From Planctomycetota bacterium (GTDB lineage Bacteria; Planctomycetota; JAJSAM01), in assembly GCA_024274785.1 (NCBI GenBank), contig JAJSAM010000036.1, positions 14,748-78,747 of the forward strand: DNA of 64,000 nucleotides, written 5' to 3'. The notes beneath the pieces were generated by a model. That model ran no database searches. It saw only the letters and a list, made by a program, of their open reading frames with translations, and had not been told where the DNA came from. Positions within the stretch are counted from its first letter, which is position 1. Each line of letters starts with the position of its first letter. Of this stretch, positions 22,080-40,676 are shown piece by piece. A program made the position numbers and the translations under genes.

Positions 22080-22337
22080 CTAGTTCTCCGCGCCCTCCTT
22101 GTGCGGCATTTCGATGAAAGAGCCACCGAAATAGGTGTAGACGCAGCGCTCGGTCTCGATGAGCAGCTTGATGGCCTTCTTACAGGCCTTCTTGTCCACC
22201 CGGTCCTCGCCGAACAACTCGATCATCATCTTGACGAGGTCGCCGGGCTTCAGTTTCTTCAGACCCTGAGCGGCAGCCACCTGCTTCTCCATGGCGTCTG
22301 CGATTTCTTCCGTCGTAGCCGAGTCCGCCATAACCAT
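22080..22337 (-). CDS. dsrD: DsrD
   Basis: KKLKPGDL, CVYTYFGGSFIEMP winged-helix signature; directly after dsrB; start may be 22331. Confidence 0.92.
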   Translation of the reverse strand: MVMADSATTEEIADAMEKQVAAAQGLKKLKPGDLVKMMIELFGEDRVDKKACKKAIKLLIETERCVYTYFGGSFIEMPHKEGAEN

Positions 22338-22340
22338 CTC

Positions 22341-23423
22341 CTAGTGCACGATCTGGGTCGACCGCTTGAAAGTCAGCCCGGCGTGCTTGAAGTCGTCGAT
22401 GTGTTCCTTCTGGAACTCGATTCCCGCCATCTTGAAGAACTTGGGCCAGGTGATGCGGTTGATCCACTCACCCATGCGCTCGAAGGGCTTCGCGTTCGCG
22501 GCCCAGAGCTCGACGAGCTTGAGAATCACATCCGTTACTTCCGGCCACCGCGGCGGGTTGTTCGGAATGTACGGTATGGCGAGCTTGCTGAACATCGGCT
22601 CGGATCGAGCATTGCTGACCTTGCCGCCCACCCAGATCGACACGCCGTCGTTCTCGGGGTCGTTCAGAGGCATCGACGGACATACCGTGAAGCAGTTCGC
22701 GCAGTACATGCACTGCTCTTCGATGACCTCGACGGAGGGCGTACCGTCCACCTGAGTCGGCCGGATGGCCGCGGTCGGACAGGCCGAAACCACGTTCGGG
22801 ATCTCACAGATCTTGGCGACCTGAGTGTGATCCGTGCGCGGGGCCTTGCGGTGGATACCGAGAATGGCGATGTCCGAGCAGTGGACCGCGCCACACATGT
22901 TCAGGCAGCAGGCCAGCGCGATGCGCAGCTTGCCGGGGAGCTTCTTCTCGCCGTTGAAGTAGGGGTGCACCACGTCCATGACCGCCTTGACAACGCCGGA
23001 GGCGTCCGTCGCGGCAGAGTGGCAGTGGACCCATCCCTGGGTGTGAACGATGCTGGTGATCGCCGCCCCGATGCCACCGACCGACACCCCCATCGCGGCC
23101 AGATCGGCGATAAGGGGGTCGATGTTCGCATCATAGGTGAGCAGGAACTCGATGTTGTGACGACTGGTGAAGCGGAGGTAGCCGTCGCAGTACTTGTCCG
23201 CGAGGTCCGCGAACTGGCGCAGCCGGTAGATGGAAACGAGACGGGCGCCGGCGGCACGAACCGTGTAGAGCTTGTCGCCCGTCGCACCGACGTGAACCAT
23301 GACACCCGGCTTCAGGACCTCGTGGTACTTCCAGGTCCCGTAGTTCTCCTTGCAGATCGGGGGCATCAGCTTGTCGTGATGAGGGGGGCCGATGTCCGTG
23401 ACCCGCTTGACTTTTTCCGCCAT
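22341..23423 (-). CDS. dsrB: Dissimilatory sulfite reductase beta subunit
   Basis: [37 protein letters not shown]. Confidence 0.98.
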
Positions 23424-23464
23424 GCTCAAATCTCCTTTGGGATCGTTTTTGATGGAGGTTGGCC

Positions 23465-24658
23465 CTACTCGTCCTCGTCCTCGTCCTCGGACAGGTCGTA
23501 GAACACGTACGGGTTTTCGCGTGGGAAGGCGACCATCTCGGGCTCCGGGTCGAGCCCGATCGCCTCGAGGAAGTTACCCATTCCAACGCGCTGAATGAAT
23601 TCACCCACGCGCTCACGGTTCTTGCCTTCCTCACTCCAGACATCCCAGATCGCCTCGACGAGGTCCTTGAGATCCTCGTAGGGCTCTTCCGGCTTCCAGA
23701 ACGGGACCAGGACGGAAGAAAGCAGCGCACCCTCGACAATCGGCGCCTTGGATCCGATCAGAATGGTGGCGCCCCGATCCTTCCCGGGTGCGAGGGCCTT
23801 CGGCATGGCGTTGATGCAGTGCATGCACTTGCGGCAGTACTCGTCATCGATCTCGAGTTTCTCACCGTCCCACTTCATACACTTCGCGGGGCAGTTCAGA
23901 ACCACGTCGTTGAAAATGTCCAGGCCGTTGTCGGCGTACTTCCTGACCTCGGCATCGTCCTTCACGATCTCGTCCCGCCAGGTGCCGATAATCGACAAGT
24001 CGGAGCGGGCAATGGCGGCCACACAGTCGTTCGGGCAGCCGGACATCTTGAACTTCCACTTGTACGGGAACATCGGCCGGTGCAGCTCGTCCTGGTACGA
24101 CATCGTCAGGTCGTAGGTCAGACCGAGGGTGTCGTAGCAGGCCCACTCACAGCGGGCGGGGCCGACGCAGCAGCTGGGGGTCCGCACGTCCGAGCCGGAT
24201 CCACCGAGGTCGAAGCCCTTTTCGGTCAGCTTCTTGAAAGTCGGCTCCAGCTCCGGAGTGCTCGTCCCGAGGAGAACGATGTCCCCCGTCGAGCCGTGCA
24301 TGTTGGTGAGCCCGGAGCCGTGCTCCTCCCAGATGTCGCAGATGTCACGCAGAGCCTTGCTGGTGTAGAACCAGCCCGCGGGCTGATTGACACGCAGCGT
24401 GTGGAAGTGGCTGACGCCGGGGAAGTCATCGGGGAGGTCGGAGTAGCGCCCGATGACGCCTCCGCCATAACCGAGGACACCCACGATTCCACCGTGCTTC
24501 CAGTGTCCGATTCGTTCCCGGTACGAGCGTTCGAGCTGTCCCAGGAGGTCCCTGGCCTCTTCGTGATGTTCTGCGGCTTGCTTGATCTCCGTCACGAAGC
24601 TGGGCCACGGTCCCTTCTCAAGTTCGTCAAGAAGGGGAGTTTCGGGTAGTTCCGCCAT
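23465..24658 (-). CDS. dsrA: Dissimilatory sulfite reductase alpha subunit
   Basis: [61 protein letters not shown]. Confidence 0.98.
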
Positions 24659-24837: not shown

Positions 24838-24853
24838 CGCAAACCGTACGCCA
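24838..24853 (-). promoter_or_regulatory. sigma54 (-24/-12) promoter of the dsr operon
   Basis: Minus strand TGGCGTACGGTTTGCG: GG-N10-GC with TT before GC; about 180 bp upstream of dsrA. Confidence 0.75.
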
Positions 24854-25058
24854 ATCCGGACCGGTGAAGAGGGGACTCACAACCATCTACCAGAGAAGGA
24901 CTTACAGAGCAGCAAGGACTGTTCGATCGCTCGCTCGGAGCCACCCGGCGGTGTGGATGGAGCTTACGGCCAGGAAGCGCCCGGCCGAAGAGGAACGCCA
25001 TAACCATCGCAAGTACAACAATTTACACCGACACGCCCCACCACCCGCACTCACCCGT

Positions 25059-25074
25059 GTTACATCGTTGTAAC
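25059..25074. promoter_or_regulatory. Candidate enhancer (UAS) palindrome, dsr side
   Basis: Perfect palindrome GTTAC-ATCGTT-GTAAC, 206 bp from the -24 element. Confidence 0.65.
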
Positions 25075-25169
25075 GAAGACCTAAGCCGCCTGAATTAAAG
25101 AACTTAGATCGACCGAAGCCCTCTCCCCCCCCATGTTCGTACGGCGGTGGAGGCGTTGCTCCCGAGCCA

Positions 25170-25191
25170 TGTTACGAATGCGCTACGGTTC
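25170..25191. promoter_or_regulatory. Second candidate UAS box, dsr side
   Basis: TGTTAC-GAATG-CGCTACGGTTC; matches 38367-38388 at 17 of 22 positions. Confidence 0.6.
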
Positions 25192-25298
25192 CCACCCACC
25201 AGCCCGGAATCAACGGGTTCAGGGCCGGTCGCCCGGGTATTCTCGATGCACTGGCACTCTCAGGCGGGAAGCCACGCGCGCCACACACCTCTGGTCCA

Positions 25299-26753
25299 TT
25301 GGCAATGCTCAAAGCACGGTCTGCCAGGTATCAACTCGTGATCAGCGCCATCATCCTGATCGGTGGCGGATTCGCGGGGATGATGGCGATCCGCTGGTGG
25401 GACCGTTTCCTGGTCGGCGAGGCCCTCGAGGAGCGCCAGGTCCTGGTCCGCAGCATCGCCATCGGCGCGGAGGCCATTCTCTCCCGTCACGGACCCGAGG
25501 ATGCTTCCGCCCTCGCCGACATTCTGGAACGGATCAGGCAGGAGTCTGAATTCGACGCGGTTCGGCTCGTGATCCTGTCGCCGGATGGGCAGGTCATCTC
25601 CGGCACCGGCACCTCCGATCCTGAGGACCGGATCCACTCCCGCCTTGAGCCCGGGGTCCGGATCATCGACGAGGAAGAGGGCCCGGTGGCGGGCATTCTG
25701 GTCATCGAGCCATTGGCCGGAGACGGATCGAAAGACGGTTTCCTGGTCGTGGAGTTCGGGATGTCCACCGTGAAGCGGGGCACAGTCCGCGCACTCATGA
25801 TCATCGTGATGCTGGTGACCGGCGGGGTACTGATCACCACGTTTTTCGTCGGCTATCTCATCCGGCGCTGGGTGAATCCCATCGAGAGACTCTCCCGCAC
25901 CATGAGCGAGGTGCAGGACGGAAACCTCGATGTCGAGCTGGACGAGAGCAGAACCGACGAGATCGGGGATCTGGGCCGCCACTTCAACGAGATGCTGAAG
26001 AGTATCCGCGCGGCGCGGGGCCAGTCGCTGAACCTGGCCCGCAAGCAGGCAAATGTCGAGAAGTTCGCGGCCCTCGGCCGTCTGTCCGCCGGCGTCGCTC
26101 ACGAGATCAACAACCCGGTGGGCGGCATCATCACCTGCATCGAAACCATGCGAAAGCTCGAGCAGGGTTCGGAGCGGTTCGAGGAGTACCTCGACCTGGT
26201 GCACTCCGGCCTCGAGCGCATCGGGAAGATCGTCATGCAGCTCCTCAGGTTCGCCCGCCAGCCGGAAGGAGAGCGGGCCGAACTGAACCTGAACGCCATC
26301 CTGAAAGAAGTCATGGTCCTCTCGCTCTTCCATAACCGGGACGAAGAGGTCGAGGTCGTGCTCAGGTTCGGAGAGATTCCGATCATCCGGGCCGCCCCGG
26401 ACCTGCTGAACCAGATCTTCCTGAACCTGGTGCTGAACGCGCTGCAGGAGATGCCGAACGGCGGCACGCTCACCGTCTCCACCTGGGCGGAAGGGAATCA
26501 CGTGGCCGCGTCCTTCGCGGACACCGGGCCGGGGATCGCGGATGAAAACCTGGAGCGGATCTTCGAGCCGTTCTTCACCACCAAGGACGTCGGGGTCGGC
26601 ACGGGCCTCGGGCTCTCGGTGGCCCTTGGAATCATCGAGGCTCACGGGGGTACGATCTCCGTAACCAACCGCGAGCAGGGCGGCGCCTGCTTCACGGTGA
26701 CTCTGCCCATCGACGCTTCGGAGCCCGTCAGGATGAAAGCCGCGGAGAGATAG
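25299..26753 (+). CDS. Membrane sensor histidine kinase (2 TM, extracytoplasmic domain, HAMP, HisKA, HATPase)
   Basis: Two TM helices; [27 protein letters not shown]; VAHEINNPV; GTGLGLS; start may be ATG 25305. Confidence 0.93.
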
Positions 26754-26755
26754 GA

Positions 26756-28120
26756 ATGAAGCGCAAGAAGACCATTCGGTTGCTCGTCATCGAAGACGAA
26801 CCCATCCTCAGGAGGACCGTCACGGATCGGCTGACCGACGAGGGTTACGCGGTTCGGGCGGAGAAGGACGGAACCTCCGGGCTCAATGCCTGGCACGAGC
26901 AGCCGTTCGACCTGATCCTCCTCGACCTGGTCATGCCGGGTATCGGCGGCATGAAGGTGCTCGAGGAGATCAGGGCCGAGGACGCGGATGTTCCGATCAT
27001 CATCATGAGCGCGCACGGCACCGTGGAGACCGCGGTAGAGGCCATGAAGCTCGGCTCGAGCGAGTTCATCACCAAACCCTTCAGTCTGGAGGAACTCAGC
27101 AATCGCATCCAGACGTTCGCCGACCTCCTCAGACTGAAACAGGAGAACCTGCACCTCAAATCTCAACTGGCGGAGCGGCCGATCATCGGCAACAGCCGCG
27201 CCATCCAGGACGTGATGGAGCAGATCGGGATCGTCGCCGGCAACCACGCCACCGTCCTCATCACGGGAGAGAGCGGCACCGGAAAGGAACTCGTCGCACA
27301 GGCGATCCACGCCCAGAGCCCCCACGCCGGGGGAACCTTCGTCAAGGTGAGTTGCCCGTCTCTGCCCGAGACCCTGCTCGAAGCGGAACTCTTCGGCCAC
27401 GAGAAAGGCGCGTTTACCGGCGCCTATCAGCGAAAGGTCGGCCGGTTCGAACTCGCCGACGAGGGGACCATCTTCCTCGATGAAATCGGGGACATTTCAC
27501 AACTCGTGCAGGTGAAGCTGCTGCGCGTTCTCCAGGAGCATTCCTTCGAACGTGTGGGCGGCACGGCGACCATCACCCCTCACACGCGCGTGGTCTGCGC
27601 CACCCGGTTCGACCTGAAGGAGATGGTGGACCAGGGCCGGTTCCGGGAAGACCTCTTCTACCGCCTGAACGTGGTCACCATTGAGGTGCCGCCCCTCGCG
27701 AAGCGCCCCGACGACATCCCGCTGCTCGTCGAGCACTTCATGACCCGCGCGAACTTCAACATGGGGAAGCAGGTCACCCAGGTGGCACCGTCCTGCATGA
27801 AGCTCCTGATGGCTTACCCCTGGCCCGGCAATATCCGCCAGTTGGAAAACACCATCGAACGCGCGGTGATGTTCAGTCAGACGAAGGTGATCACCATCGC
27901 CGATCTCTGTTCGGAACTCCACCACTACCGGGATGAGGTGAAGGACCTCTGTCCGGATGAGTTCGACATCCACTGCCAGGTCCGCCAGACGGAAAGGCAG
28001 TGCATCATCAAGGCCCTGCAGCGGACGGGTGGGAACCGGTCGAGGGCGGCGGACCTGCTGGGCATCTCCCGGAAGCGGCTTTGGGAGAAGATCAAGGAGC
28101 TTCATGTGTTGGTGGATTGA
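26756..28120 (+). CDS. NtrC-family sigma54-dependent response regulator (REC-AAA+-HTH)
   Basis: LLDLVMPG; GESGTGKE; GAFTGA; FLDEIG; WPGNIRQL; GNRSRAADLLGISRKRL. Confidence 0.95.
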   Translation: MKRKKTIRLLVIEDEPILRRTVTDRLTDEGYAVRAEKDGTSGLNAWHEQPFDLILLDLVMPGIGGMKVLEEIRAEDADVPIIIMSAHGTVETAVEAMKLGSSEFITKPFSLEELSNRIQTFADLLRLKQENLHLKSQLAERPIIGNSRAIQDVMEQIGIVAGNHATVLITGESGTGKELVAQAIHAQSPHAGGTFVKVSCPSLPETLLEAELFGHEKGAFTGAYQRKVGRFELADEGTIFLDEIGDISQLVQVKLLRVLQEHSFERVGGTATITPHTRVVCATRFDLKEMVDQGRFREDLFYRLNVVTIEVPPLAKRPDDIPLLVEHFMTRANFNMGKQVTQVAPSCMKLLMAYPWPGNIRQLENTIERAVMFSQTKVITIADLCSELHHYRDEVKDLCPDEFDIHCQVRQTERQCIIKALQRTGGNRSRAADLLGISRKRLWEKIKELHVLVD

Positions 28121-28191
28121 GGAGGCGGCCCGCACGGAAGGCGAACGGCCGGAGAACCGTCGCGGCACCGACGGATCGAAAGCAGGGGTAA

Positions 28192-28349
28192 GGGCTCGTG
28201 CAAGAATAAGTTCGCAGGACCGAGAGCGGTGATGCGCCCGCCCGGCAAGGCGCGAGGAGCGCGCAGCCCTACTGGTTTCGACCGACGAGCAACGCAGCTT
28301 GAGGGGATGCGGCAGCCCCCGAATCCCGAAGTTATTCCTGCGCGGGCCC
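28192..28349 (+). mobile_element. MITE/REP-like palindromic element, copy 2
   Basis: 158 bp; TIRs GGGCTCGTGCAAGAATAA / TTATTCCTGCGCGGGCCC; about ten mismatches to copy 4 by eye. Confidence 0.8.
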
Positions 28350-28369
28350 CAGGGGGCCGCGAGACCGCT

Positions 28370-29494
28370 TCACTGCGGAGCCCCGGCCTTCTCCCGTCCG
28401 GTGTAGTGGGCGTGCACGAGCGCCACCGAGCGGTAGACCAGATGCGCGATCTTCGACCACGGCGCGTAGCCCAGCAGACAGAAGACGCAGACCAGGTGGA
28501 TGAAGTAGACGCCGAAAGCCACCGTCTGGATGTCCAGCATGCGGAACGCTTCGACCATGACGCCGGTGACGCCCGTCAGGAGCAGCGAATACATGAAGAA
28601 CCAGTCGTACCAGGTGCCCTTCGTCTGACGCTCGGGGCGGGTCAGGCGATACTTCACCAGGAGGATCGTGCCGATCACCAGGCCGAGAGCGCCGAGGTTC
28701 AGCATCAGCTTCAGCGGGTGGAAGAAGGGCAGCGGCAGGTCGAGCATCCCGAACATGAACCCGATGCCCACGATCGAACCGCCGATGAAGATCAGCGAGA
28801 AACCGTAGAACATCAACATGTGGCCGAGCGCCCGCGACTCGCCGGCTTCACACTGCCTGAACTTCGCGTGCGAGACAATGTCGCTTGCGGCCGCTGCTAC
28901 CGCGCTGATGAAGTTCGCGCCCGCCGGGGCGGGATGCGCCTTCATCAGTGACTTCCAGTAGTTGAATGCACCGATCGCAAAGATCAGGCTGCCGACCATG
29001 GTCATGACGCCGAGCAGCGGTTCCAGAATGCCCGGCGGAAAGATCCCATCGAAGTAGCTGGTCTCGCCGTGCCTGTCCCCGAAGAGCAGGAAGATCAGCG
29101 TCCAGAGCACCACCGGCACCGCGATCAACACCGGCAGGTACTTCGGACTCTCGAGGAGCTTCTGCACGCCCCCCATCGGAGTGTACTCCCGGATCGCCTC
29201 TTTGCGGACGGCGGCGAGCACGTCACCCGGACGGGCGCCGCGCGGACACAGGATCGAGCAGTCGGTACAACCGAAGCAGAGCCAGATGTCCGGGTCGTTG
29301 ATCAACTCCTCTTTCTGTCCCCACTGGGCCAGGATCATCTCCTTGCGGGGGAAAGGACGGTCCTTCGGGGAGAGTTCGCAAGCCACGGAGCAGTTCGCGC
29401 ACTGCATGCACTGCTTCACCGTATCCCCGCCGGACTGAACGATGCGCCGAACGAAGTCGAGGTCGGATCGGATCACCTTCCGGTCTTCCGCCAT
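28370..29494 (-). CDS. qmoC: QmoC, membrane heme b / Fe-S subunit
   Basis: CMQCANCSVAC, IWLCFGCTDCSILCPRGA, GHMLMFYGF, PWSKIAHLVYR. Confidence 0.95.
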   Translation of the reverse strand: MAEDRKVIRSDLDFVRRIVQSGGDTVKQCMQCANCSVACELSPKDRPFPRKEMILAQWGQKEELINDPDIWLCFGCTDCSILCPRGARPGDVLAAVRKEAIREYTPMGGVQKLLESPKYLPVLIAVPVVLWTLIFLLFGDRHGETSYFDGIFPPGILEPLLGVMTMVGSLIFAIGAFNYWKSLMKAHPAPAGANFISAVAAAASDIVSHAKFRQCEAGESRALGHMLMFYGFSLIFIGGSIVGIGFMFGMLDLPLPFFHPLKLMLNLGALGLVIGTILLVKYRLTRPERQTKGTWYDWFFMYSLLLTGVTGVMVEAFRMLDIQTVAFGVYFIHLVCVFCLLGYAPWSKIAHLVYRSVALVHAHYTGREKAGAPQ

Positions 29495-29535
29495 GGTCGT
29501 CTCCTGAGCCTGCAATTCTCACCGGGGAGCGCAGG

Positions 29536-31773
29536 CTAAAAGCCCTTGAAGGGGTTCATGCCGATCTCTTCGATCTCCCCGGCGAACTCGTTGATGATCT
29601 CCGGAAGCCGGTCGAATTCGTCGATGGAGAGCTCTTCGATGCGCACGCGCTCCGTTTCGAGTGCAAGCTGCGTCAGCTTCTCCTTGATGTTGCTGCTGCG
29701 CGTGCCCATCAACTCGCTGCCCTTGATGTAGTGGCACTGATAGTCGTCGCCGGACTTGCAGCCGATGAGGAGGATGCCGTCGAAACCGGACGACAGCGCG
29801 TCGGCGATCCAGACGACGTTCACCGATCCGAGACAGCGCACCGGGATCACCCGGATCCACGGCGACATCCGCGTCTTGAGGGCTGCGGCCCGATCAAAGG
29901 CGGGATACGCGTCGTTTTCGCAGAAGAACGCGAGCAGCCGCGGCTTCTCATCGAACTCGTCGGGGATATCGATCGCCTTCAGCATCGAAGAGACGATGTC
30001 AATCGAGTAGTCCTTGAAACTGACGATCCGCTCCGGGCAGGCGCCGAGACAGATACCGCAACGGCGGCAGCGGGTGGGCATCAGTTCCGGCGTGCCCCTG
30101 GCGTCCTCGTTCAACGTTCCAAAGGGGCACTCCTCCGTGCACCGCTTGCACTGGGTGCAACGCTGCAGGAAGAAGTCCGGGAAGGACTGATCGCCCCACC
30201 GCGGGTGGACCGAGTAGCCCTCCTTCAACAGGTTCGTGGCCTGGATGGTCTTCAGCACCGCGCCCTGCGCGTCTTCCTCGGCGGTGAGGGTGTCGCTCGG
30301 AGCCCGCATGCAGCCGGCGGCGTAGATACCGGTGCGCCTCGTCTCGAACGGGAAGCAGATGAAATGGGAGTCCGGGAAGCCGTACTTCAGCGCCGGAAGG
30401 TCCGGTCCCTGGCGATAGTTCAGGTTCAGGATCTCGGTGCCTTCATGATGGCCGAACTCTTCGACGGTCTGGTTGGCCATCTCGACCTGCACCGGAGAAT
30501 CGTTCTTCGCGATGATCGCCCTGGCTTCGCCTACTTTCCGGATGGCTTCGCCGTCGGCGGCGTCCGGGACCATGCCGGTGGCGAGCACCACCAGGTCCGC
30601 GGGCACTTCGATCTTCTCGCCGAGAAGAGTGTTCTCGGCCAGGACCTTGAGACCACCGTTCACCGTAACGCCGGTGACATCACCCTTGTTGAAGAAGACG
30701 CCCTCGTCCTCCTGAACGCGCTTATAGAACTCCTCCCACTGGGCGGGAGCGCGCATGTCCTTGTAGAGGATGATCGCCTTCGCGTCCGGGTCCATTTCCC
30801 GAACGTAGAGCGCCTGCTTGAGGGAAACCCGACAGCAGACCGCGGAGCAATACGGCAGGTGCTCCTGGTCACGAGAGCCGGCGCACTGGATGAAAACGAC
30901 CTCTCGTGGCGGCTTGCCGTCGGAGGGCCTGAGGATGGCCTCGTTCTTCGCCATCTCCTCGAACTCAACGTTGGTGATGACGTCCGGGGAGAGGCCGTAG
31001 CCCAGGTGCTCGAGCTTCGTGGCATCATAGGGCTTCCAGCCGGTGGCCTGCACGACCGCGCCCACGCGGAATGCCACTTCGCCCGAGGGGGTTTCGAGCT
31101 TCACGTCGAACTGTCCGGGCTGGCCGTCGATCGAGGTGATCTTCGTTCCGGTGTGGACCGTGATCAGATCGGATGACCTCACCGTCTCGATGAGCCTGAT
31201 GATCACCGGCTCCTCGAGTTCCCGGTACGGGGGCTTCGTCGGGAACTGCTTGTGGTTCTTGAGCAACCGGCCGCCGATCTCGTCGGCCTTCTCCACCAGG
31301 ATGACCTCGCGACCCGCCGCCGCCGCTTCCGCCGCCGCGGTCAGGCCGGTGCAGCCGCCGCCCACCACCAGGATACCGTCGGCGATCTCCTCGTCGAACG
31401 GCTGGGGTACGTCGTACTTCTGCGCCTGGACCATGCCCATGCGCATGTAGTCGTTGGCCAGCATCTGCGTGTCTTCCTCGCCGGCGGGCTGGCACCAGGC
31501 CACGCCTTCGCGGAGGCTGACCCGGGACACGAACCGGTCGGGAATGGTGAAGACGTCGCATTTCTCGCGGTGGCTGCACGCGCAGAGGACGGCCTTGCCG
31601 CCGCCGGCGAGTGCCGCCGCGAGAAGAGCCACACCCTCTTCGCCGCAAAGGGCGGGGTGGATCCTCGGCTTTACCTGGTACTCCGATTGGACCAGCTCAC
31701 CGAGCGCATCAACGTCGATGGCGTCGCCGATGCCGCAACCCGAGCAGATGAAAACGTGGATGTCGTCGCTCAT
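29536..31773 (-). CDS. qmoB: QmoB (HdrA-like FAD/Fe-S protein with C-terminal MvhD/FlpD domain)
   Basis: VFICSGCGIG, CAGSRD..HLPYCSAVCC, CTQCKRCTEECP, FFCENDAYPA, RCLGS, CHYIKGS; start at 31773 after SD. Confidence 0.95.
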   Translation of the reverse strand: MSDDIHVFICSGCGIGDAIDVDALGELVQSEYQVKPRIHPALCGEEGVALLAAALAGGGKAVLCACSHREKCDVFTIPDRFVSRVSLREGVAWCQPAGEEDTQMLANDYMRMGMVQAQKYDVPQPFDEEIADGILVVGGGCTGLTAAAEAAAAGREVILVEKADEIGGRLLKNHKQFPTKPPYRELEEPVIIRLIETVRSSDLITVHTGTKITSIDGQPGQFDVKLETPSGEVAFRVGAVVQATGWKPYDATKLEHLGYGLSPDVITNVEFEEMAKNEAILRPSDGKPPREVVFIQCAGSRDQEHLPYCSAVCCRVSLKQALYVREMDPDAKAIILYKDMRAPAQWEEFYKRVQEDEGVFFNKGDVTGVTVNGGLKVLAENTLLGEKIEVPADLVVLATGMVPDAADGEAIRKVGEARAIIAKNDSPVQVEMANQTVEEFGHHEGTEILNLNYRQGPDLPALKYGFPDSHFICFPFETRRTGIYAAGCMRAPSDTLTAEEDAQGAVLKTIQATNLLKEGYSVHPRWGDQSFPDFFLQRCTQCKRCTEECPFGTLNEDARGTPELMPTRCRRCGICLGACPERIVSFKDYSIDIVSSMLKAIDIPDEFDEKPRLLAFFCENDAYPAFDRAAALKTRMSPWIRVIPVRCLGSVNVVWIADALSSGFDGILLIGCKSGDDYQCHYIKGSELMGTRSSNIKEKLTQLALETERVRIEELSIDEFDRLPEIINEFAGEIEEIGMNPFKGF

Positions 31774-31777
31774 GGGA

Positions 31778-33055
31778 TCAACCTCGCCTCGCAATCTGGT
31801 GGGCCTTGAGGACGGCACCGGTGGCGTCCTTCACGCAAGCGGAGACTTCCGCGGGGCGCTTGGCGCACCCGGTCGCGAAAACTCCGGGAGCTGCGGAAGA
31901 AGAGTTGCCGACCATGAAGCCCTGCTCGTCGGTCAGCCACCCAGATGGGAACCCCGCGTCCTTCGCCTCGGGGTCGAGGCCCACCGCCAGCACCGCCAGG
32001 TCGGCGGTGAACTCGACTTTCTGACCGGAGAGCGTGTCCTCGGCGTGGAGGATCACCGCGCCATCGGCCCCCTCGGTGATCTTCGCCACGCGCCCCTTCA
32101 CGAACGTCGCGCGCTCGTTGTTCTCGAGTTCCTGGAGGAAGTCCTCCAGCCGGCCCGGGGCGCGGCGATCGATGTAGAAATGCCGGACCGTCGCATCCTC
32201 GCTGGCCTGCAGCACGTAGTTCGCCTGTTTGAAGCTCGCCAGACAACAGACCGCGGAGCAGTGCGCGAGGTGCAATTCGTCCCGGGAACCGGCGCAGTGC
32301 ACAAAGGCCACCACCTTCGGCGCCTGGTGGTCGCTCGGGCGCAGGATCTTGCCCCCGGTGGGACCATCGACCGCCGCCAGGCGCTCCATCTCCACGTTCG
32401 TAATGACGTTCTTGAACTTCCCGTAGCCCAGTTCTTCGAGCTTGTTCGCGTCGTAGGGCTTCCACCCGGTGGCGACGATCAGGGAGGAGACGGTGATGGT
32501 CTCCGTTTCGACCTTCCCGCCGAAGTCGATCGCGTCGACCTTGCAGACGTCACGGCACTTTCCGCAGGAGTCACGGTCACAGTGATCGAAGTCGATCGCG
32601 TGGCGGGCCGGGAACGCCGCGCCGTAGGGCAGGTAGATGGCCTTCGTCTCATCCATACCGTAGTTGAAGTCGTTCGGCCGCTCCTTCGGGCACGCCTCGA
32701 CACACTCGCCGCAGTTGGTGCAGTTGGCGTTCACTCCGCGGGGTGTCTTCTCGAGCTCGACCTCGAACTTGCCGGGACCGCCCGCAACACCCACCACCTC
32801 GGTCTGGGTGAGGAGATGGACCCTGGGGGTGGTCCGAAGTCTCTTGAGATGGATCTCCACGCCACAGGTCGGCGGGCAGAGCTTCGGGAAGTACTTGTTC
32901 AGTTGCACGACTCGCCCGCCGAGATAGGCGTTTCGCTCCACGAGGTACACCTCGTGGCCCGCCTCCGACGCCTCGACCGCGGCGGAAAGACCGGAGATCC
33001 CTCCGCCGATGACGAGAATGGGCGCGCCGACGTTGTCCGTCGTCGTAGCTGTCAC
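31778..33055 (-). CDS. qmoA: QmoA (HdrA-like)
   Basis: ILVIGGGISG, KYFPKLCPPTCG, CAGSRDE..CSAVCCLAS. Confidence 0.95.
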   Translation of the reverse strand: MTATTTDNVGAPILVIGGGISGLSAAVEASEAGHEVYLVERNAYLGGRVVQLNKYFPKLCPPTCGVEIHLKRLRTTPRVHLLTQTEVVGVAGGPGKFEVELEKTPRGVNANCTNCGECVEACPKERPNDFNYGMDETKAIYLPYGAAFPARHAIDFDHCDRDSCGKCRDVCKVDAIDFGGKVETETITVSSLIVATGWKPYDANKLEELGYGKFKNVITNVEMERLAAVDGPTGGKILRPSDHQAPKVVAFVHCAGSRDELHLAHCSAVCCLASFKQANYVLQASEDATVRHFYIDRRAPGRLEDFLQELENNERATFVKGRVAKITEGADGAVILHAEDTLSGQKVEFTADLAVLAVGLDPEAKDAGFPSGWLTDEQGFMVGNSSSAAPGVFATGCAKRPAEVSACVKDATGAVLKAHQIARRG

Positions 33056-33903
33056 TGTGCAGGCTCCTGGACCGCGTCGTTGTTGATGGCCTCAGCCTTG
33101 ATGGTCTCTGCCTTCAACTCCATGGTCGGCTTCCCGAACAGGCTGAACCGGAGGAACCGGAAGCCGAACTCCATGAGTGCTTCGTCGTCAGACTGGAGCC
33201 GCTCCTGCTCATCCCCGGACACCTCGAATCGTTCGAGAAAAGTGCTCGAGAAGATGAAGCGGCGGAAGGTGTCGAGCTCGTAGGTCCCCATGTAGAACAT
33301 CTGCATCTGCTGGGGAGTGAGCTCCTTTTCGGTCGTGAGGTAGTCGTCGACCGCGAGTTGACGGTACTTCTCGCCCCACTCGTCGTACTCCTCGATGCCC
33401 TGCCCCGAGATCCACTCCCCCACCTTCCGGCTGGTGGATTCGGCGAAGCCCCGGCAACCATCCTCTTCCATCAGGAACCAGAACTCCTCCTCACGACCTT
33501 CCGCTTCCCCGGCCTTGGCGTAACCGAGGGGATACATGCGGCAGGCCCAGGGACGATCTTCGTAGACCTGGCAACCGCCCTTCTCGAGATCCAGGAACGG
33601 GCAGGATTTCTGCTCGTTGTCCCCCATGCGGATCAAGGGAGCCGGCAGCCTCTGCTCCTTCGCGAACGGCAGGACCGTCAGTTGATCGAGGAACTCCTCG
33701 GAAGTGAGGCCCAGGCGATTCTTCAGGCGGAGGACGTCATAGGGGGTGAGGACGATGTTCACATCGCCACAGCAGTCTCCGAAACAGGAGACGCCGGGAT
33801 GGCAGCCAAATGCGAAGCTATCCTCCCGTGTGAGCCGAGGGGCCTCGTCGAGGACCTTCTTTTCGAACTCGGACCTCGCCTTGACGGCTTCTTCGTCGGA
33901 CAT
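33052..33903 (-). CDS. YkgJ-family cysteine-cluster protein
   Basis: FGCHPGVSCFGDCC..LTPYD; CPFL..GCQVYEDRPWACRMYP; SD GGAGG before ATG 33903. Confidence 0.85.
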   Translation of the reverse strand: MSDEEAVKARSEFEKKVLDEAPRLTREDSFAFGCHPGVSCFGDCCGDVNIVLTPYDVLRLKNRLGLTSEEFLDQLTVLPFAKEQRLPAPLIRMGDNEQKSCPFLDLEKGGCQVYEDRPWACRMYPLGYAKAGEAEGREEEFWFLMEEDGCRGFAESTSRKVGEWISGQGIEEYDEWGEKYRQLAVDDYLTTEKELTPQQMQMFYMGTYELDTFRRFIFSSTFLERFEVSGDEQERLQSDDEALMEFGFRFLRFSLFGKPTMELKAETIKAEAINNDAVQEPAQ

Positions 33904-34088
33904 CGGATCAGACCTCCTGGCCGGATCGAGGCCGGCCGGTGAGCCGGGGGACAGGAGGGATTCCGCCCATCGAGTGGACATCGGCAGGGCACGACGGAGT
34001 CCGCGAACGGCGGCCCTGTCATGCGACCACCCGACAAGTCGGGCCGTGTCCCCCCCACCGTGCTCCCGCAAAGGACCCTGGTGGAAAG

Positions 34089-34117
34089 CGACCCTCCGGC
34101 GAAACGCCGGAGGGTCG
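34089..34117 (-). terminator. 13-bp stem-loop just after aprA
   Basis: CGACCCTCCGGCG-AAA-CGCCGGAGGGTCG, followed by CTTTCC on the minus strand. Confidence 0.7.
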
Positions 34118-34128
34118 ATGATGATCGG

Positions 34129-36015
34129 CTACTCGAAGATGCGGTGGATCGGCTTCTTCGACATCTCCCACTCACCCGTTCCCGGGTTCCAGCGAGAGTT
34201 CACGAATACCTTCCACTCTTCCTCGTTCATCGTGGGGCAGTCCGAACGGAAGTAGTATCCGGGCCAGCGCGTCTCCTCGCGGTAGAGCATGGTCCGGACG
34301 TGTACCTCGGCCTGCCAGGTACGGTGCACGTTCTCCCAGCAGCGCAGGAGTTCGTGCAGGTCTTCCGCTCCGAGGTGCTCGAGGTCTTCCCTGAGCATCG
34401 CCAGAAGCTCAAGGGCCTTCTCGAGGTTCTCTTTGCTGGTGGTGAAGTTGGTCGAAACGCCACCCGCGTACTCGTCCATGATCTTCTGCAGACGGAACAT
34501 GGCCATCTTCGGACGCAGGTAGTTCGGGTTGATGTCGGGGTCGGTGGAGGCGTTCTTGTGCTGCTCGAAGAGGTCGAGCGGAGCAAGAATCTTCTCTTCC
34601 ATGGCCTTGACGGCGGCCATGTCGACCTGCGGCTCCTCGGGGTGCTCGATGACGTACTTGAGAGCAGCCTGCGCCGCGATCCGGCCCTCGGTGAAGGAAC
34701 CGGAGGAGAACTTGTGACTCGAAGCGCCGGATGCGTCGCCGACGCAGAAGATACCGGGCACGGTCGCCATGTTGGCGTAGCCCCAGAAGTAGTCGTTCTT
34801 CGACGCGTCGTTCTGGAGGTCGGCCGGACCGGAGACCCAGGCGCCGGAAGCACCGGAGTGCGAGCCGATGAAGTAGGGCTCACAGGCGGCGATCTCGGAG
34901 GGCTTCTCTTCGGGGGCCGTGTTGGTGGACGCCCACAGGAGAGCCTGCGAGATGGTCATGTCGAGGAAGTCTTCCCAGGCCTCTGCCTCGAGTTCCTTGA
35001 GCTTCTTCTTCCGCTCCTTCGGATCCTCGGTGGCCTCGGAGATGTTCTTGATGGCTTCGGCCGTCTGCATGTAGATCGGGCCCTTGCCGTCCATCACATC
35101 GAGCATCATGAGCCAGTTACGCAGGTTGGCCGGAACCGGCTTGACCTTGCCGTACTCGCCCCACTTCTGCAGCTCTTCGGCGTTGGTCTGCATGTAGTTC
35201 TCGCCGAGAGCGTTGGTCGCACGCGACTTGAACAACAGGAACCAGGCGCCGACCGGGCCGTAGGCGTCCTTGAAGCGGACCGGAATGAACCGGACCTCCT
35301 GGCAGGTCATCTCACAGCCGGCACGCAGTGAGAAGTAGGTGCTGGCGCCGGAGTTGAATGGCGGGTACCAGGAGCGGCCGAGGCCTTCACCGACGGAGCG
35401 GGGCTTGAACACGTGCACCGCGCCGCCCATCGCAACCATGACCGCCTTCGCCCTGAAGACGTAGAACTTGTTTTCACGGATCGAGAAGCCCACGGCGCCG
35501 GCGATCTTGTCGCCGTCCATGATCGGCTCGGTGATGAAAACACGCTCGTAGATGTTGTCGATCCCGAGGGCGTTCTTGGCGGTCTCGGCGACGAGTACCT
35601 TGTAGGACTCACCGTTGATCATGAGCTGCCAACGACCCTCGTGAACGTATCCACCTTCCCCGTCCTGCCAGATGGGAAGGCCCCACTTCTCGAACAGGTG
35701 GACGGTCCCGTCGACGTGGCGCGCAATGCTGGCGACCAGGTCCTCGCGGGTGATGCCCATGAGGTCGTTGCGGACGTACGCAACGTAGTCCTGCATGGTG
35801 TTCTGGCCGTCCTTCAGGCCGACGTACTGGTTGATGGCGGAGAGGCCCATCGCCACCGCGCCGGACCGGTCCATTGCAGCCTTGTCGACCACGGTGACTT
35901 TCAGGCCGTGCTTCCTGGCCCAGTGGGCGGCCTCGACGGCTGCGCCACAGGCGGCCATGCCGCCACCGCAGATCAGGAGGTCGGTCTGGACCTCAACGGT
36001 TTCAAAATTCGGCAT
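34129..36015 (-). CDS. aprA: Adenylylsulfate reductase alpha subunit
   Basis: DRSGAVAMGLSAIN, WQLMINGESYK, RFKDAYGPVGAWFL, HKFSSGSFTEGR, ETRWPGYY. Confidence 0.98.
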   Translation of the reverse strand: MPNFETVEVQTDLLICGGGMAACGAAVEAAHWARKHGLKVTVVDKAAMDRSGAVAMGLSAINQYVGLKDGQNTMQDYVAYVRNDLMGITREDLVASIARHVDGTVHLFEKWGLPIWQDGEGGYVHEGRWQLMINGESYKVLVAETAKNALGIDNIYERVFITEPIMDGDKIAGAVGFSIRENKFYVFRAKAVMVAMGGAVHVFKPRSVGEGLGRSWYPPFNSGASTYFSLRAGCEMTCQEVRFIPVRFKDAYGPVGAWFLLFKSRATNALGENYMQTNAEELQKWGEYGKVKPVPANLRNWLMMLDVMDGKGPIYMQTAEAIKNISEATEDPKERKKKLKELEAEAWEDFLDMTISQALLWASTNTAPEEKPSEIAACEPYFIGSHSGASGAWVSGPADLQNDASKNDYFWGYANMATVPGIFCVGDASGASSHKFSSGSFTEGRIAAQAALKYVIEHPEEPQVDMAAVKAMEEKILAPLDLFEQHKNASTDPDINPNYLRPKMAMFRLQKIMDEYAGGVSTNFTTSKENLEKALELLAMLREDLEHLGAEDLHELLRCWENVHRTWQAEVHVRTMLYREETRWPGYYFRSDCPTMNEEEWKVFVNSRWNPGTGEWEMSKKPIHRIFE

Positions 36016-36027
36016 CGCTGGCTCCTT

Positions 36028-36465
36028 CTAGCCCCCGAGGGTGAACAGGTCCGTGCCAATGCAATCGGGCTCGTTGAACAGGATTTCATCGTTGATGTCG
36101 CCATCGAACGTGTACCCCGCCGCCGGGTCCGCCTGCCCTTCCGGAGTCGTCCGGATCGGGAACTTGAAACGCTTCAGCATGCCATTGCGGAACTTCACGG
36201 TCCACATGATCGAGTCGGTGCTCCGCATCGGAGAGACCGTCGCGCCCATGGGGCAGAAGTCTGCGTAACCGCGAACCTCGATCGCCTGAGTCGGGCAGAT
36301 CTTTACACAGGAGTAGCACTCCCAACACATGTCCGGTTCGAGGTTGAACGCCTTCATCGTCTCTTTGTCGAGAGTCATCAGGTCGTTCGGGCAGATGTAC
36401 TGGCAGGCCGTCTTGTCGAGGGCCTTGCAGCCATCGCACTTCTCAGGATTAACGAAGCTCGGCAT
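36028..36465 (-). CDS. aprB: Adenylylsulfate reductase beta subunit
   Basis: MPSFVNPEKCDGCKALDKTACQYICPNDLM, CWECYSCVKICP, RFKFPIRTTPEG. Confidence 0.98.
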   Translation of the reverse strand: MPSFVNPEKCDGCKALDKTACQYICPNDLMTLDKETMKAFNLEPDMCWECYSCVKICPTQAIEVRGYADFCPMGATVSPMRSTDSIMWTVKFRNGMLKRFKFPIRTTPEGQADPAAGYTFDGDINDEILFNEPDCIGTDLFTLGG

Positions 36466-36555
36466 CCCTCACACTGCTCCTTCTGCGCTCTCCCGGGGGG
36501 CGCAATCCCCATCTTTGCGGTTTCTGGTTATCGCCATACGCCGCGGCGCTTCGGA

Positions 36556-37770
36556 CTAACCTTCGCCCGTGGCGCCGCGGTGCAGCTTGATCTCCACTTT
36601 CTCTTCGAGGTTGCGGTAGTACTCCCGCAGGATCGAAAGGACCTCGGGCTTGCTGAACTCCTTCGGGATCTCCCCACCCTCGGAGAGGGTCTTTCTGAGC
36701 ATCGTGCCGGAGAGCAGCAGGCGGTCTTCCTTGCCGTGCGGGCAGGTCTTCATGGAGGCCATGGACTCGCACTTGTAGCAGTAGAAGGTCCAGTCCATCT
36801 TGAGCGGCTGGAGCTTCAGGGCGCCGTCCGGGATCTTGTTGAAGATCTCGTGGGCGTCGAATGGACCGTAGTAGTCACCGACACCGGCATGGTCGCGACC
36901 CACGATCAGGTGGCTGCAGCCGAAGTTCTGGCGAAACACCGCGTGCAGCAGGGCCTCGCGCGGACCGGCGTAGCGCATCTCCATCGGGTAACCGCCCTGC
37001 ACGACGCGCTCCTCGCGGAAGTAGTTCTTCACGAGAGCGTCGATGCAGTTGACGCGGACCTCGGCCGGAATGTCGCCCGGCTTCAGCGCTCCCACCAGTT
37101 GGTGGATGTAGACGCCGTCACAGACTTCGACCGCCACCCAGGCCAGGTAGGCGTGCGATGCATGCATCGGATTCCTGAGCTGAAGAGCGGCAACCGTCGA
37201 CCAGCCACGCTCCTCGAATATGGCGCGGGCCTCTTCGGGGCGCTGGTAGATCCCGAACTTCTCGGGGTAGTCGCTTTCGGAGATGACCTTGACCGGACCG
37301 CCGAGATTCACATCGCCCTGCTCCATGACTTTCTGGACGCCGGGGTGCTCGGGGTCGGTGGTTGTGAAGACGTGCTCGCACTCGAAGTTCTTGTCGATCG
37401 AGTACTTGTCCTCGACCTTCATCGTCCCCATGATCTCGTCGGTTTCACCATCGACGAGAGCGACCTCGGTCCCGACCGCGATCGAGTCCGCGGTGGCCTG
37501 GTCGGTGGAGAGGGTGATCGGGATCGGCCAGAAGACGCCGTTCGTCAGCACCATCGGCTCACAGGCGCCCTTCCAGTCCGCCTCACCCATGAATCCGGTG
37601 AGCGGCGTGAAGGCGCCGATACCGAGCATGATGAGGTCCGAGGTCTCCCTCGTCGTCATCCTGACCTTCTGCATCGTTCTGGCGCGCTCGAGCTCCGCCG
37701 CCCGCTCCCCTTCCGGGAGCAAAAGGGGCATCAGCCTGTCCGAGCCATGGGGTGGAACCAGCTTTGCCAT
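36556..37770 (-). CDS. sat: Sulfate adenylyltransferase (dissimilatory ATP sulfurylase)
   Basis: KLVPPHG, QLRNPMHxxH, [25 protein letters not shown]. Confidence 0.97.
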
Positions 37771-37887
37771 CTCTACCTTCCTTGATCAACGTTCGGTGGT
37801 TGCATTCACAATCGGGTCCGGGCCGGACCCGGTATCGGTATCGGTTGTCCGCGCAGGCATACCCTCCGGCGCTGCGCTGTGGGTATC

Positions 37888-37903
37888 GGCAAACGGTGCG
37901 CCA
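37888..37903 (-). promoter_or_regulatory. sigma54 (-24/-12) promoter of the sat-apr-qmo operon
   Basis: Minus strand TGGCGCACCGTTTGCC; 13 of 16 positions identical to the dsrA promoter. Confidence 0.78.
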
Positions 37904-38110
37904 AAGGAGAACCACAATCCGCGGAAGTCGTAACATATTGCAACAAATGGACTTGTGAATTTTACCGTCAGGCAGGCATAACGCCCAAGCCTCCCGTCCC
38001 CATCCATCGGTCCGGGCCCGGGACCACCGGGCGACGAGAGCGAGAACATCCATAACCACCTACCCACACATGCCTTGAGAACATGTCCACTCACCCCCCT
38101 CCGTCCCCTT

Positions 38111-38126
38111 GTTACGGATATGTGAC
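38111..38126. promoter_or_regulatory. Candidate enhancer (UAS) palindrome, sat side
   Basis: TT-GTTAC-GGATAT-GTGAC-AA, 208 bp from the -24 element. Confidence 0.62.
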
Positions 38127-38137
38127 AACGACGCAGA

Positions 38138-38300
38138 GGGCCCGTCTGGAAAGAACTGCTGCATTCGAGGGCCGCCGCATCCCGCTACGCTTTGTTGTTC
38201 GTCGGTTGAAACCAGCAAGGTTGCGCCCTCCTCGCGCCTTGCTTTCTCGGGCGCAGCGGCGCTCTCGGTGCAACGATCGCACTTGTTTCCAGACGAGCCC
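38138..38300 (-). mobile_element. MITE/REP-like palindromic element, copy 3 (reverse orientation, variant TIRs)
   Basis: TIRs GGGCCCGTCTGGAAA / TTTCCAGACGAGCCC; reverse complement carries the shared core. Confidence 0.75.
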
Positions 38301-38366
38301 AAAGTTCTGGTGCTGAGGGAGCTGCTCTGTTTGGGTGGCCGCACGGGCCGATTCGGGGGCTGCGGG

Positions 38367-38388
38367 TGTTACACACACGCTACGGTTC
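38367..38388. promoter_or_regulatory. Second candidate UAS box, sat side
   Basis: TGTTAC-ACACA-CGCTACGGTTC. Confidence 0.6.
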
Positions 38389-40627: not shown

Positions 40628-40653
40628 TTCAGCGTTCCTCACCGTGATCCGGC
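40605..40653. repeat. Tandem 20-bp repeat (about 2.5 copies) spanning the nnrD stop codon
   Basis: TGATCCGGCGTTCCTCACCG / TGATTCAGCGTTCCTCACCG / TGATCCGGC. Confidence 0.85.
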
Positions 40654-40676
40654 AACCTGCCCGTATCATGGACAGG

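Follow-up and report, generated by a model that had tools for sequence, protein, structure and literature searches.

Genes of dissimilatory sulfate reduction recur in uncultured Planctomycetota, Acidobacteriota, and Gemmatimonadota. How such a pathway is switched on is the question raised by a 64-kb stretch of Planctomycetota DNA (64,000 nucleotides, hereafter the window), in which two gene clusters carry it. The sequence elements, their conservation and specificity, the domains of the regulators, and the conserved position of the regulator genes were computed, and together they point to a probable answer: both operons are likely transcribed from sigma-54 promoters and co-activated, via GTNNC-N6-GTAAC sites, by the kinase/activator pair encoded beside dsrA.

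The two clusters are the following:
8963 to 24658, minus strand: dsr cluster, co-directional behind the dsrA promoter (Pfam, ORF map).
28370 to 37770, minus strand: sat cluster, behind the sat promoter (Pfam).

The dsr cluster starts with dsrA, dsrB, a dsrD-like ORF, a dsrN-like gene, a 155-aa ORF, a DsrL/GltD-like gene, and dsrC, and goes on with tetrapyrrole (sirohaem-type) synthesis genes, an RsbRD_N protein gene, dsrM, dsrK, and DsrO-like and DsrP-like genes. Judging by the common strand and the mostly short gaps, it would be a single operon, though less surely so across the interval of about 239 bp that follows the dsrD-like ORF. The sat cluster runs in the order sat, aprB, aprA, a CxxCxxCC protein gene, qmoA, qmoB, and a qmoC-like gene, which is also found in the relatives' loci L081, L083, and L170. 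A plus-strand ORF at 28229-28951 is regarded as spurious, because it has no Pfam match and lies opposite the qmoC-like gene (28370-29515, minus strand). An hdrD/narI-like operon, a predicted third target, is cut by the left edge of the window. Pfam bears out the identities given in the initial annotation for dsrA (23465-24658, minus strand), sat (36556-37770, minus strand), and the REC-AAA+-HTH activator at 26756-28120 (plus strand). Nothing in the 64-kb window shows the facultative lifestyle that was also suggested there.

Sigma-54 promoters need an ATP-hydrolysing activator to open and are otherwise silent. Their consensus has GG and GC 10 nt apart, within TGGCAC-N5-TTGCW-like elements. Sequence matching and comparison with relatives, gathered by protein look-ups (a metagenome scan with AprA returned only distant ones, at most 79% identical), give one such element per operon:
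24838 to 24853, minus strand: sigma-54 (-24/-12) promoter of the dsr operon, TGGCGTACGGTTTGCG.
37888 to 37903, minus strand: sigma-54 promoter of the sat-aprBA-qmoABC operon, TGGCGCACCGTTTGCC.

Both have the -24/-12 form TTGGC-N7-TTTGC, with the GG and GC dinucleotides exactly 10 nt apart, and the near-identity of the two promoters, already pointed out in the initial annotation, is exact in the sequence and extends to relatives. Ten promoters were compared, namely those of dsrA (window, L081, L083, L084, L166, and L167) and sat (window, L081, L169, and L171). All ten have TTGGC and TTTGC at a fixed spacing, with six spacer bases varying, the pattern expected of a -24/-12 element. More specifically, TTGGC and GTTTGCG are invariant around a variable spacer in the five relatives' dsrA promoters, and TTGGC-N7-TTTGCC is kept in the three relatives' sat promoters. 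Sigma-54-dependent transcription is expected to begin about 12 nt downstream of the GC; its start is predicted near 24827 for the dsr operon, leaving a 5' UTR of about 169 nt, and near 37877 for the sat operon. When RNA elements were sought in the 5' UTRs, Rfam gave no match in the 64-kb window, and a candidate element in the sat leaders was rejected (weak consensus fold of -8.8 kcal/mol, with 2 of 13 predicted pairs kept by two-sided change).

The rpoN gene is not among the Pfam- or ORF-annotated genes of the window, and what implies its presence in the genome is the occurrence of two GAFTGA-bearing activators. Sigma-54 regulons have been described in the literature for Planctomycetia. A general enrichment of such promoters at sulfate-reduction genes was considered and rejected: a match is present in only about 7% of the 245 upstream regions examined (aprB, sat, and dsrA), where the background rate alone would give 3.4%. 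The arrangement is, therefore, lineage-specific, and no general trait of sulfate-reduction loci.

Upstream of the promoters lie four putative activator sites, for which no strand is assigned:
25059 to 25074: proximal site of dsrA, a perfect palindrome GTTAC-N6-GTAAC, 206 bp from the promoter.
25170 to 25191: distal site of dsrA, with the core GTTAC-N6-GCTAC at 25171-25186.
38111 to 38126: proximal site of sat, GTTAC-N6-GTGAC, 208 bp from the promoter.
38367 to 38388: distal site of sat, with the core GTTAC-N6-GCTAC, 257 bp from the proximal site.

The distances of 206 and 208 bp are measured to the TGGC base of the promoter. Within the 64 kb, GTTAC-N6-GTRAC occurs only at the two proximal sites (0.04 expected by chance), and the far box TGTTAC-N5-CGCTACGGTTC only at 25170 and 38367 (0.01 expected). 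The distal site of dsrA is 112 bp from the proximal one and about 115-135 bp upstream of the start of the kinase gene. Enhancers of such activators usually consist of two or more dyad-symmetric sites about 80-250 bp upstream of the promoter; here the proximal sites fall within this range, and the distal ones are further out by 112 and 257 bp.

The palindromes and the far boxes, the latter as GTTAC-N6-GCTAC variants, had been reported in the initial annotation, which proposed looking for them in related genomes. They are exact in the window, and promoter, palindrome, and far box are all conserved upstream of the relatives' dsrA and sat, both upstream sites being kept in every compared region long enough to show them. 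For dsrA, the proximal site reads GTTAC-N6-GTA(A/G)C in L081, L083, L084, and L167, where it precedes the promoter by roughly 200-221 bp, and GGTAC-N6-GTAAC in L166, where the distance is roughly 105 bp; the distal site is (C)CGTAGC-N6-GTAACA in L081, L083, and L167, and degenerate in L084. For sat, the proximal site is GTCAC-N6-GTAAC in L169 and GCTAC-N6-GTAAC in L171, about 215-222 bp from the promoter. The distal-proximal spacing is not constant: it is 101-112 bp in most loci (102-103 bp upstream of sat in L169 and L171) versus 257 bp at the sat operon of the window. In the intergenic alignment, invariant columns concentrate in four blocks (distal site, proximal site, promoter, and ribosome-binding region), with scattered single ones outside; the DNA is otherwise poorly alignable (56% mean column identity).

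Specificity was assessed with a matrix trained on 13 sites from relatives, picked by eye from the conserved blocks, and none from the window. It scores the four window sites at 17.1-24.9 bits (dsrA proximal, 19.5; dsrA distal, 17.8; sat proximal, 19.7; sat distal, 24.9, the top match), while the next match in the 64 kb reaches 12.3. In 2.4 Mb of other sulfate-reduction loci, scores of at least 17 are confined to the training sites and a position upstream of aprB in L028. Two other matches, in L134 and L160, were set aside, as they look like chance and are not close to any promoter.

One further element shared by the two upstream regions fares differently:
24998 to 25006, no strand assigned: CCATAACCA box upstream of dsrA, with a sat copy at 38050-38058, of doubtful function.

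The initial annotation is right about the presence of this box and its exact 61-bp offset from each palindrome. As a conserved box it was rejected, since L081, L083, L169, and L171 lack it at the corresponding position, and a third copy (22328) is coding sequence that includes part or all of the dsrD-like start codon. It is, thus, probably not part of the regulatory system, and may be either lineage-specific or due to chance. Two other shared words, AGTTCTTT and GGGTGAGTG, were dropped for want of conservation in relatives. Read by eye, the sequence of the window and of relatives is richer in A+T at 50-70 bp downstream of the proximal site. No match to the IHF consensus (WATCAA-N4-TTR) was recognised by eye between enhancer and promoter, where the non-conserved CCATAACCA box sits.

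Two genes divergent from dsrA encode a candidate signalling system:
25299 to 26753, plus strand: membrane histidine kinase (Pfam: HAMP, HisKA, HATPase_c).
26756 to 28120, plus strand: NtrC-type response regulator/sigma-54 activator (Pfam: PF00072, PF00158, PF25601, PF02954).

The kinase, presumed to be the sensor of the system, has two predicted transmembrane segments flanking a domain of about 130 aa, followed by HAMP, HisKA, and HATPase_c; its gene ends 3 nt before the activator gene starts. The activator has the features of the NtrC family, with REC, AAA+ (Walker A GESGTGKE from residue 171, intact GAFTGA at 218), and HTH_8 domains, and its phospho-acceptor is presumed to be the Asp of the LLDLVMP motif starting at residue 55. 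Its ortholog group spans 59-91% identity, below which matches fall to 50%, and the HTH region is nearly invariant inside the group. Kinase and activator genes are divergent from dsrAB in all six ortholog contexts examined, with the candidate sites in the common intergenic region, and it is this synteny that would assign the sites to the activator. In some relatives, a PF12974 periplasmic binding-protein gene precedes the kinase gene.

A mechanism can be proposed on this basis. The two operons would be dsrAB(D)N-L-C with the tetrapyrrole genes plus dsrMK and the O/P-like genes, and sat-aprBA-qmoABC, each promoter being preceded by two GTNNC-N6-GTAAC sites, the proximal at about 205-220 bp and the distal another 100-260 bp upstream. 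The most likely activator would be the NtrC-type response regulator whose gene is divergent from dsrA. On a signal, probably extracytoplasmic, the membrane kinase that is its partner would phosphorylate it, and the phosphorylated activator would oligomerise on the sites and loop the DNA to the sigma-54 holoenzyme, turning both operons on together. Binding of the regulator to the sites, the presence of sigma-54, a single transcript per cluster, and the signal are what we infer here. Since sat, aprBA, qmoABC, dsrABD, dsrC, and dsrMK, with the DsrO/DsrP-like genes, all fall in the two operons, the single-activator regulon over the whole pathway put forward in the initial annotation is the simplest reading of the conserved promoters, paired sites, synteny, and gene content. 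Conserved sigma-54 promoters and paired sites beside a two-component activator gene also make it probable that a signal switches the pathway on.

Beyond the close relatives, palindrome-promoter pairs across 165 loci all lie upstream of aprB or dsrA, except in L164, where they are also upstream of dsrMK-like and hdrD/narI-like operons. In Acidobacteriota-type loci, similar sites and sigma-54 promoters precede aprBA and a dsrMK-like operon. The activator ortholog is absent from the examined DNA of these site-bearing loci, and none of the database matches above 59% identity to the activator comes from them. Either a more distant relative binds these sites, or motif and regulator are not strictly linked. 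L170 offers a natural contrast: its Sat is 82% identical, no activator ortholog lies within the 17 kb examined, and the 194 bp upstream of sat contain neither a -24/-12 promoter nor an activator site.

Among other explanations, it is conceivable, albeit unlikely, that the sigma-54 promoters are real and that a different activator binds the GTNNC-N6-GTAAC sites, the dsrA-adjacent pair controlling something else or only itself. A candidate exists in the window (47307-48359, with GAFTGA and HTH_8, and without a receiver domain), or it could be encoded elsewhere. The Acidobacteriota-type loci, as well as unrelated activator genes near other sulfate-reduction loci (L019, L070, L079, and L080), fit such a view; the invariably divergent position of the kinase/activator pair around the shared sites speaks against it, and an activator of the 47307-48359 type was not seen adjoining sat in L169.

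Much less probable is that the palindromes are Rex or HcpR/CRP-FNR operators serving sigma-70 promoters, the -24/-12 look-alikes being incidental. The sat site with its flanks, TTGTTAC-N6-GTGACAA, does resemble the outline of the Rex operator (consensus TTGTGAA-N6-TTCACAA), sat, apr, qmo, and dsr are reported or predicted targets of these regulators in Desulfovibrio, and a single weak sigma-70-like match (9 of 12) is found upstream of sat, at 37959-37932. This reading was rejected because the conserved core is GTTAC/GTAAC and not GTGAA/TTCAC; moreover, the TTGT/ACAA flanks vary among relatives, and the distance of the sites from the start codons (200-480 bp upstream) is typical of enhancers and not of operators. 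The -24/-12 bases do not vary among the ten promoters compared, and there is no sigma-70-like match upstream of dsrA. That the likeness is a leftover of local duplication, or chance, without regulatory meaning, is hardly credible: two regions of one genome do have several short words at similar spacing, but only short islands match between them, these islands persist in the orthologous regions of genomes with protein identities of only 70-90%, and the matrix built from relatives finds the window sites specifically.

The preferred reading, activation of both operons by the dsrA-adjacent pair, resembles systems of the NtrB/NtrC type (glnAp2, ZraSR, AtoSC), which also combine a membrane or sensor kinase with a REC-AAA+(GAFTGA)-HTH_8 activator, use paired dyad sites 100-250 bp or more upstream of a GG-N10-GC promoter, and have the regulator gene adjoining its target. 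It differs in its targets, dissimilatory sulfate-reduction operons, and in its site: NtrC binds adjacent TGCACC-N5-GGTGCA sites, whereas here the site is GTNNC-N6-GTAAC and its two copies are separated by about 100 bp. Two-component sigma-54 control would, thus, be of a known kind, with dissimilatory sulfate reduction as its new target.

In Desulfovibrio, as the initial annotation stated for Rex, sat, apr, qmo, and dsr are reported or predicted targets of Rex and HcpR (PMC4045070, PMC1274295). There too, sites of a single regulator precede several sulfate-reduction operons, and the pathway behaves as one regulon, but Rex and HcpR repress or modulate genes that are expressed anyway, whereas here the activator would be obligatory, the promoters silent by default, and the motif core is different. 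The sigma-54 regulomes of D. vulgaris Hildenborough and D. alaskensis G20 likewise concern sulfate reducers with many activators; their motifs are comparative-genomics predictions, and a distance of about 100 bp separates the upstream sites from the transcription start (PMC4641369, PMC4045070). The D. vulgaris regulome paper never uses the terms dsr, sulfite reductase, adenylyltransferase, or apsA, and so does not report the core genes of sulfate reduction among its sigma-54 targets (PMC4641369). The OrpR/IHF/sigma-54 orp operons of D. vulgaris (PMC3897727, PMC8359166) share the divergent regulator and target, the sigma-54 promoter, and the upstream palindromes, and the A+T-rich stretch between site and promoter could serve DNA bending here as well. 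Unlike the present system, OrpR senses redox via an iron-sulfur cluster, involves no phosphorylated response regulator, and has other targets; an IHF site was not recognised by eye here. No description of such control of the sulfate-reduction pathway turned up in the literature searched, nor any of the motif set, in line with the initial annotation.

As a sigma-54 promoter is silent without a switched-on activator, the whole pathway is predicted to be expressed only on a specific signal, in contrast to the repressor-type modulation by Rex and HcpR described for Desulfovibrio in the literature searched. That signal could be sought by way of the sensor kinase and the activator, the DNA motif now defined, and the two transcription starts predicted here, and the motif could delimit the regulon in metagenome-assembled genomes. 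More tentatively, sulfate-reduction operons of at least two phyla, in the Planctomycetota-affiliated clade of the window and in Acidobacteriota loci, may be driven by one enhancer grammar, in which GTNNC-N6-GTAAC sites precede a sigma-54 promoter by about 180-400 bp. The Acidobacteriota loci are of the Thermoanaerobaculia/Sulfomarinibacteraceae type, with sites before aprBA, dsrMK-like, and hdrD/narI-like operons. If true, this would amount to a dedicated master switch for sulfate respiration, either ancient or travelling with the laterally transferred gene set, and would explain how non-classical lineages hold the pathway silent until needed.

According to Pfam scans and an ORF map, the sulfate-reduction genes of the window (G+C content ~64%) are organized in two long minus-strand clusters, which flank a plus-strand kinase/activator pair, itself divergent from dsrA:

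24658 down to 8963, minus strand: dsr cluster
37770 down to 28370, minus strand: sat-apr-qmo cluster
25299-26753, plus strand: histidine kinase
26756-28120, plus strand: NtrC-type response regulator (the activator)
28229-28951, plus strand: 240-aa ORF after the activator gene, without Pfam hit
40644-44096, plus strand: HEAT-repeat protein (1150 aa)
51262-58323, minus strand: Kelch and Big_5 domain protein (2353 aa)

The dsr cluster starts with dsrA, dsrB, a dsrD-like ORF, a dsrN-like amidase, a 155-aa ORF, a DsrL/GltD-like oxidoreductase, and dsrC, continues with tetrapyrrole (sirohaem-type) synthesis genes and an RsbRD_N-domain protein gene (14038-14577, minus strand), and ends with dsrM, dsrK, and DsrO/DsrP-like genes. 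The second cluster comprises, in this order, sat, aprB, aprA, a CxxCxxCC protein gene, qmoA, qmoB, and a qmoC-like gene. The nearest relatives of both QmoB and the activator are found in genomes labelled Planctomycetota. The 240-aa ORF is probably not a gene, as it has no Pfam hit and lies opposite the qmoC-like gene (28370-29515, minus strand). Another HEAT-repeat protein follows the dsrMK-like genes of L164, a metagenome contig used for comparison.

Motif scans reproduce exactly the sequence features listed in the initial annotation. The pattern TGGC-N7-TTGC has five copies in the window, and only two are intergenic, upstream of dsrA and sat:

24839-24853, minus strand: dsrA -24/-12 promoter match
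37889-37903, minus strand: sat -24/-12 promoter match

Chance would yield 0.04 copies of the GTTAC-N6-GTRAC palindrome (the proximal site) in the window and 0.01 of the 22-nt far box (the distal site); the former is found at 25059 and 38111 only, the latter at 25170 and 38367 only. Pairwise alignment and k-mer comparison reveal no general homology between the two upstream regions, which share short islands at equal offsets. The CCATAACCA box, proposed as a further common element, is indeed found at 24998 and 38050, each time 61 bp from the palindrome, but it is not conserved in relatives; a third copy (22328) overlaps the start codon of the dsrD-like ORF.

The promoter and both sites are kept in the orthologous dsrA and sat upstream regions of relatives. 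In the dsrA upstream regions of the ortholog loci, invariant columns cluster in four blocks, with scattered single ones elsewhere: the distal site (C)CGTAGC-N6-GTAACA; the proximal site GTTAC-N6-GTA(A/G)C, 101-112 bp downstream of it; TTGGC-N7-TTTGCG, another ~200-221 bp downstream (~105 bp in the activator ortholog context L166); and the ribosome-binding region. The sat upstream DNA of relatives was obtained via Sat homologs. In L169 and L171 (Sat 90% and 82% identical, respectively), both sites are present, 102-103 bp apart, and TTGGC-N7-TTTGCC follows ~215-222 bp downstream, while in L081 the promoter lies within the 214 bp available. In all ten promoters the -24 and -12 elements are unchanged and the spacer varies, as is characteristic of genuine sigma-54 promoters. 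Another Sat homolog (82% identical), from L170, belongs to a sat-apr-qmo-dsrAB superoperon with no activator ortholog within the 17 kb examined; the 194 bp that precede this sat contain neither a -24/-12 promoter nor a site. The sat sites of the window are 257 bp apart (intervening DNA 38127-38366), versus 102-103 bp upstream of sat in L169/L171 and 101-112 bp upstream of dsrA, which suggests a ~150-bp insertion in this genome.

No sigma-70-like match was found upstream of dsrA. Upstream of sat, a weak one (TTCACA-16-TATGTT, 9/12; 37932-37959, minus strand), 30 nt upstream of the sigma-54 promoter and without clear conservation in relatives, could provide basal transcription. Searches of the window for Rfam families and for leader (5' UTR) structures yielded no family and nothing convincing, respectively. 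Within the sat 5' UTR lies a short G+C-rich hairpin (GGGTCCGG...CCGGACCC, 37810-37830, minus strand), which L081 retains and L169 retains imperfectly; its covariation support is weak.

The specificity of the motif was assessed with a position weight matrix trained exclusively on 13 sites from relatives. In a scan of both window strands, the four window sites reach 17.1-24.9 bits and the next-best match 12.3. In 2.4 Mb of sulfate-reduction loci spanning many phyla, a score of at least 17 is reached, outside the training sites, nowhere but upstream of aprB in L028. When 165 loci are searched for palindromes (at most one mismatch) that precede a strong -24/-12 match by 100-500 bp, matches lie solely upstream of dsrA or aprB, apart from two extras in L164, upstream of its dsrMK-like and hdrD/narI-like operons. 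Sigma-54-like promoters are present in only ~7% of 245 aprB/sat/dsrA upstream regions, versus a 3.4% background; the arrangement is therefore restricted to certain lineages rather than general.

Related arrays (GTNNC-N6-GTAAC), 180-400 bp upstream of good sigma-54 promoters (e.g., TGGTACAGCTCTTGCT and TGGTACACCTCTTGCT), precede aprBA in five loci, namely L028 (Acidobacteria), L058 (Thermoanaerobaculia), L076 (Sulfomarinibacteraceae), and the metagenome contigs L131 and L164. The L028/L058 site, GTTAC-N6-GTAACGGTTCC, resembles the far box of the window, GTTAC-N6-GCTACGGTTC. No activator ortholog is encoded in the DNA examined of these five loci, nor does any from them appear above 59% identity in the database match list. 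Their aprB promoters carry TGTGAA a few nucleotides before the -24 GG (L028 ~5668, L058 ~2706, L076 ~5878, L131 ~2150, L164 ~8662); four of the five have the longer form TTGTGAA. Such a half of a Rex/HcpR-like motif hints at a second control layer in Acidobacteriota-type loci; the window has no equivalent.

A further target is predicted at the left window edge:

5-6498, plus strand: hdrD/narI-like operon, cut by the window edge

It encodes an HdrD/CCG protein, a NarI-like protein, a Fer4_11 protein, an NrfD-like protein fused to a multihaem cytochrome c, a stand-alone receiver protein, and a PAS histidine kinase. Since a sigma-54 promoter and a GTTAC-N6-GTAAC site lie in front of the matching hdrD/narI pair of L164 (9-2217, minus strand), the window operon is a putative third target, with its promoter position beyond the window edge. 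Stand-alone receiver proteins recur beside sulfate-reduction genes, upstream of sat in L171 (66-473), beside a dsrK-like gene in L166 (11406-11807), and beside the NrfD-cytochrome gene of the window (4650-5045).

The activator (REC-AAA+-HTH_8) has an intact GAFTGA motif, and its Fis-type HTH is nearly invariant among orthologs. The ortholog group is sharply bounded (59-91% identity, the following database matches falling to 50%), and six contexts were compared: L081 (87%), L083 (81%), L166 (73%; assembly shared with a genome labelled Planctomycetota), L167 (71%), L084 (70%), and L168 (59%; an L084-type copy with a frameshift). In all six, kinase and activator genes are divergent from dsrAB-(D)-N...L-C. 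Another candidate for binding the upstream sites is also encoded in the window:

47307-48359, plus strand: second sigma-54 activator, AAA+ (GAFTGA) and HTH_8

This protein has no receiver or other N-terminal sensory domain. The rpoN gene is not among the genes of the 64-kb window, and its presence in the genome is implied by the two sigma-54 activators encoded there.

For Desulfovibrio, control of sat, apr, qmo, and dsr by Rex and HcpR has been reported or predicted (PMC4045070, PMC1274295). The terms dsr, sulfite reductase, adenylyltransferase, and apsA are absent from the paper on the D. vulgaris sigma-54 regulome (PMC4641369), neither sulfate reduction nor dsrA is mentioned in a 2025 cross-phylum sigma-54 regulon survey (PMC12316311), and full-text literature searches retrieved no account of sigma-54 acting on these genes. 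The machinery is like that of textbook NtrC-type sigma-54 control; what is new is the target pathway, dissimilatory sulfate reduction, and the motif.

The initial reading, an inducible single-activator regulon in a facultative sulfate reducer, is largely supported as regards the conserved sigma-54 promoters and sites, and not as regards CCATAACCA as a part of it; no feature of the window speaks to the facultative lifestyle. The kinase (HAMP-HisKA-HATPase_c) carries a ~130-aa domain between two hydrophobic segments. In three of the six contexts, an extra PF12974 periplasmic binding-protein gene (L084 7628-8527, L167 7572-8501, L168 7628-8527) immediately precedes the kinase gene; tblastn finds no copy in the window. 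Its product also gives weaker SBP_bac_11 and PBP_like matches, among them a family of general extracellular solute-binding proteins, and it offers a clue to the type of signal sensed. With the activator and its partner kinase adjacent to the conserved sites, we infer that the kinase would sense an extracytoplasmic cue, in some relatives with the help of the periplasmic binding protein, and phosphorylate the activator, which would assemble on the proximal and distal sites and remodel the closed sigma-54 complex via DNA looping. The start of the kinase gene is only 115-135 bp away from the distal dsrA site, which might feed back on the regulator operon too. Both operons, and hence the whole sulfate-reduction pathway, would be turned on together.
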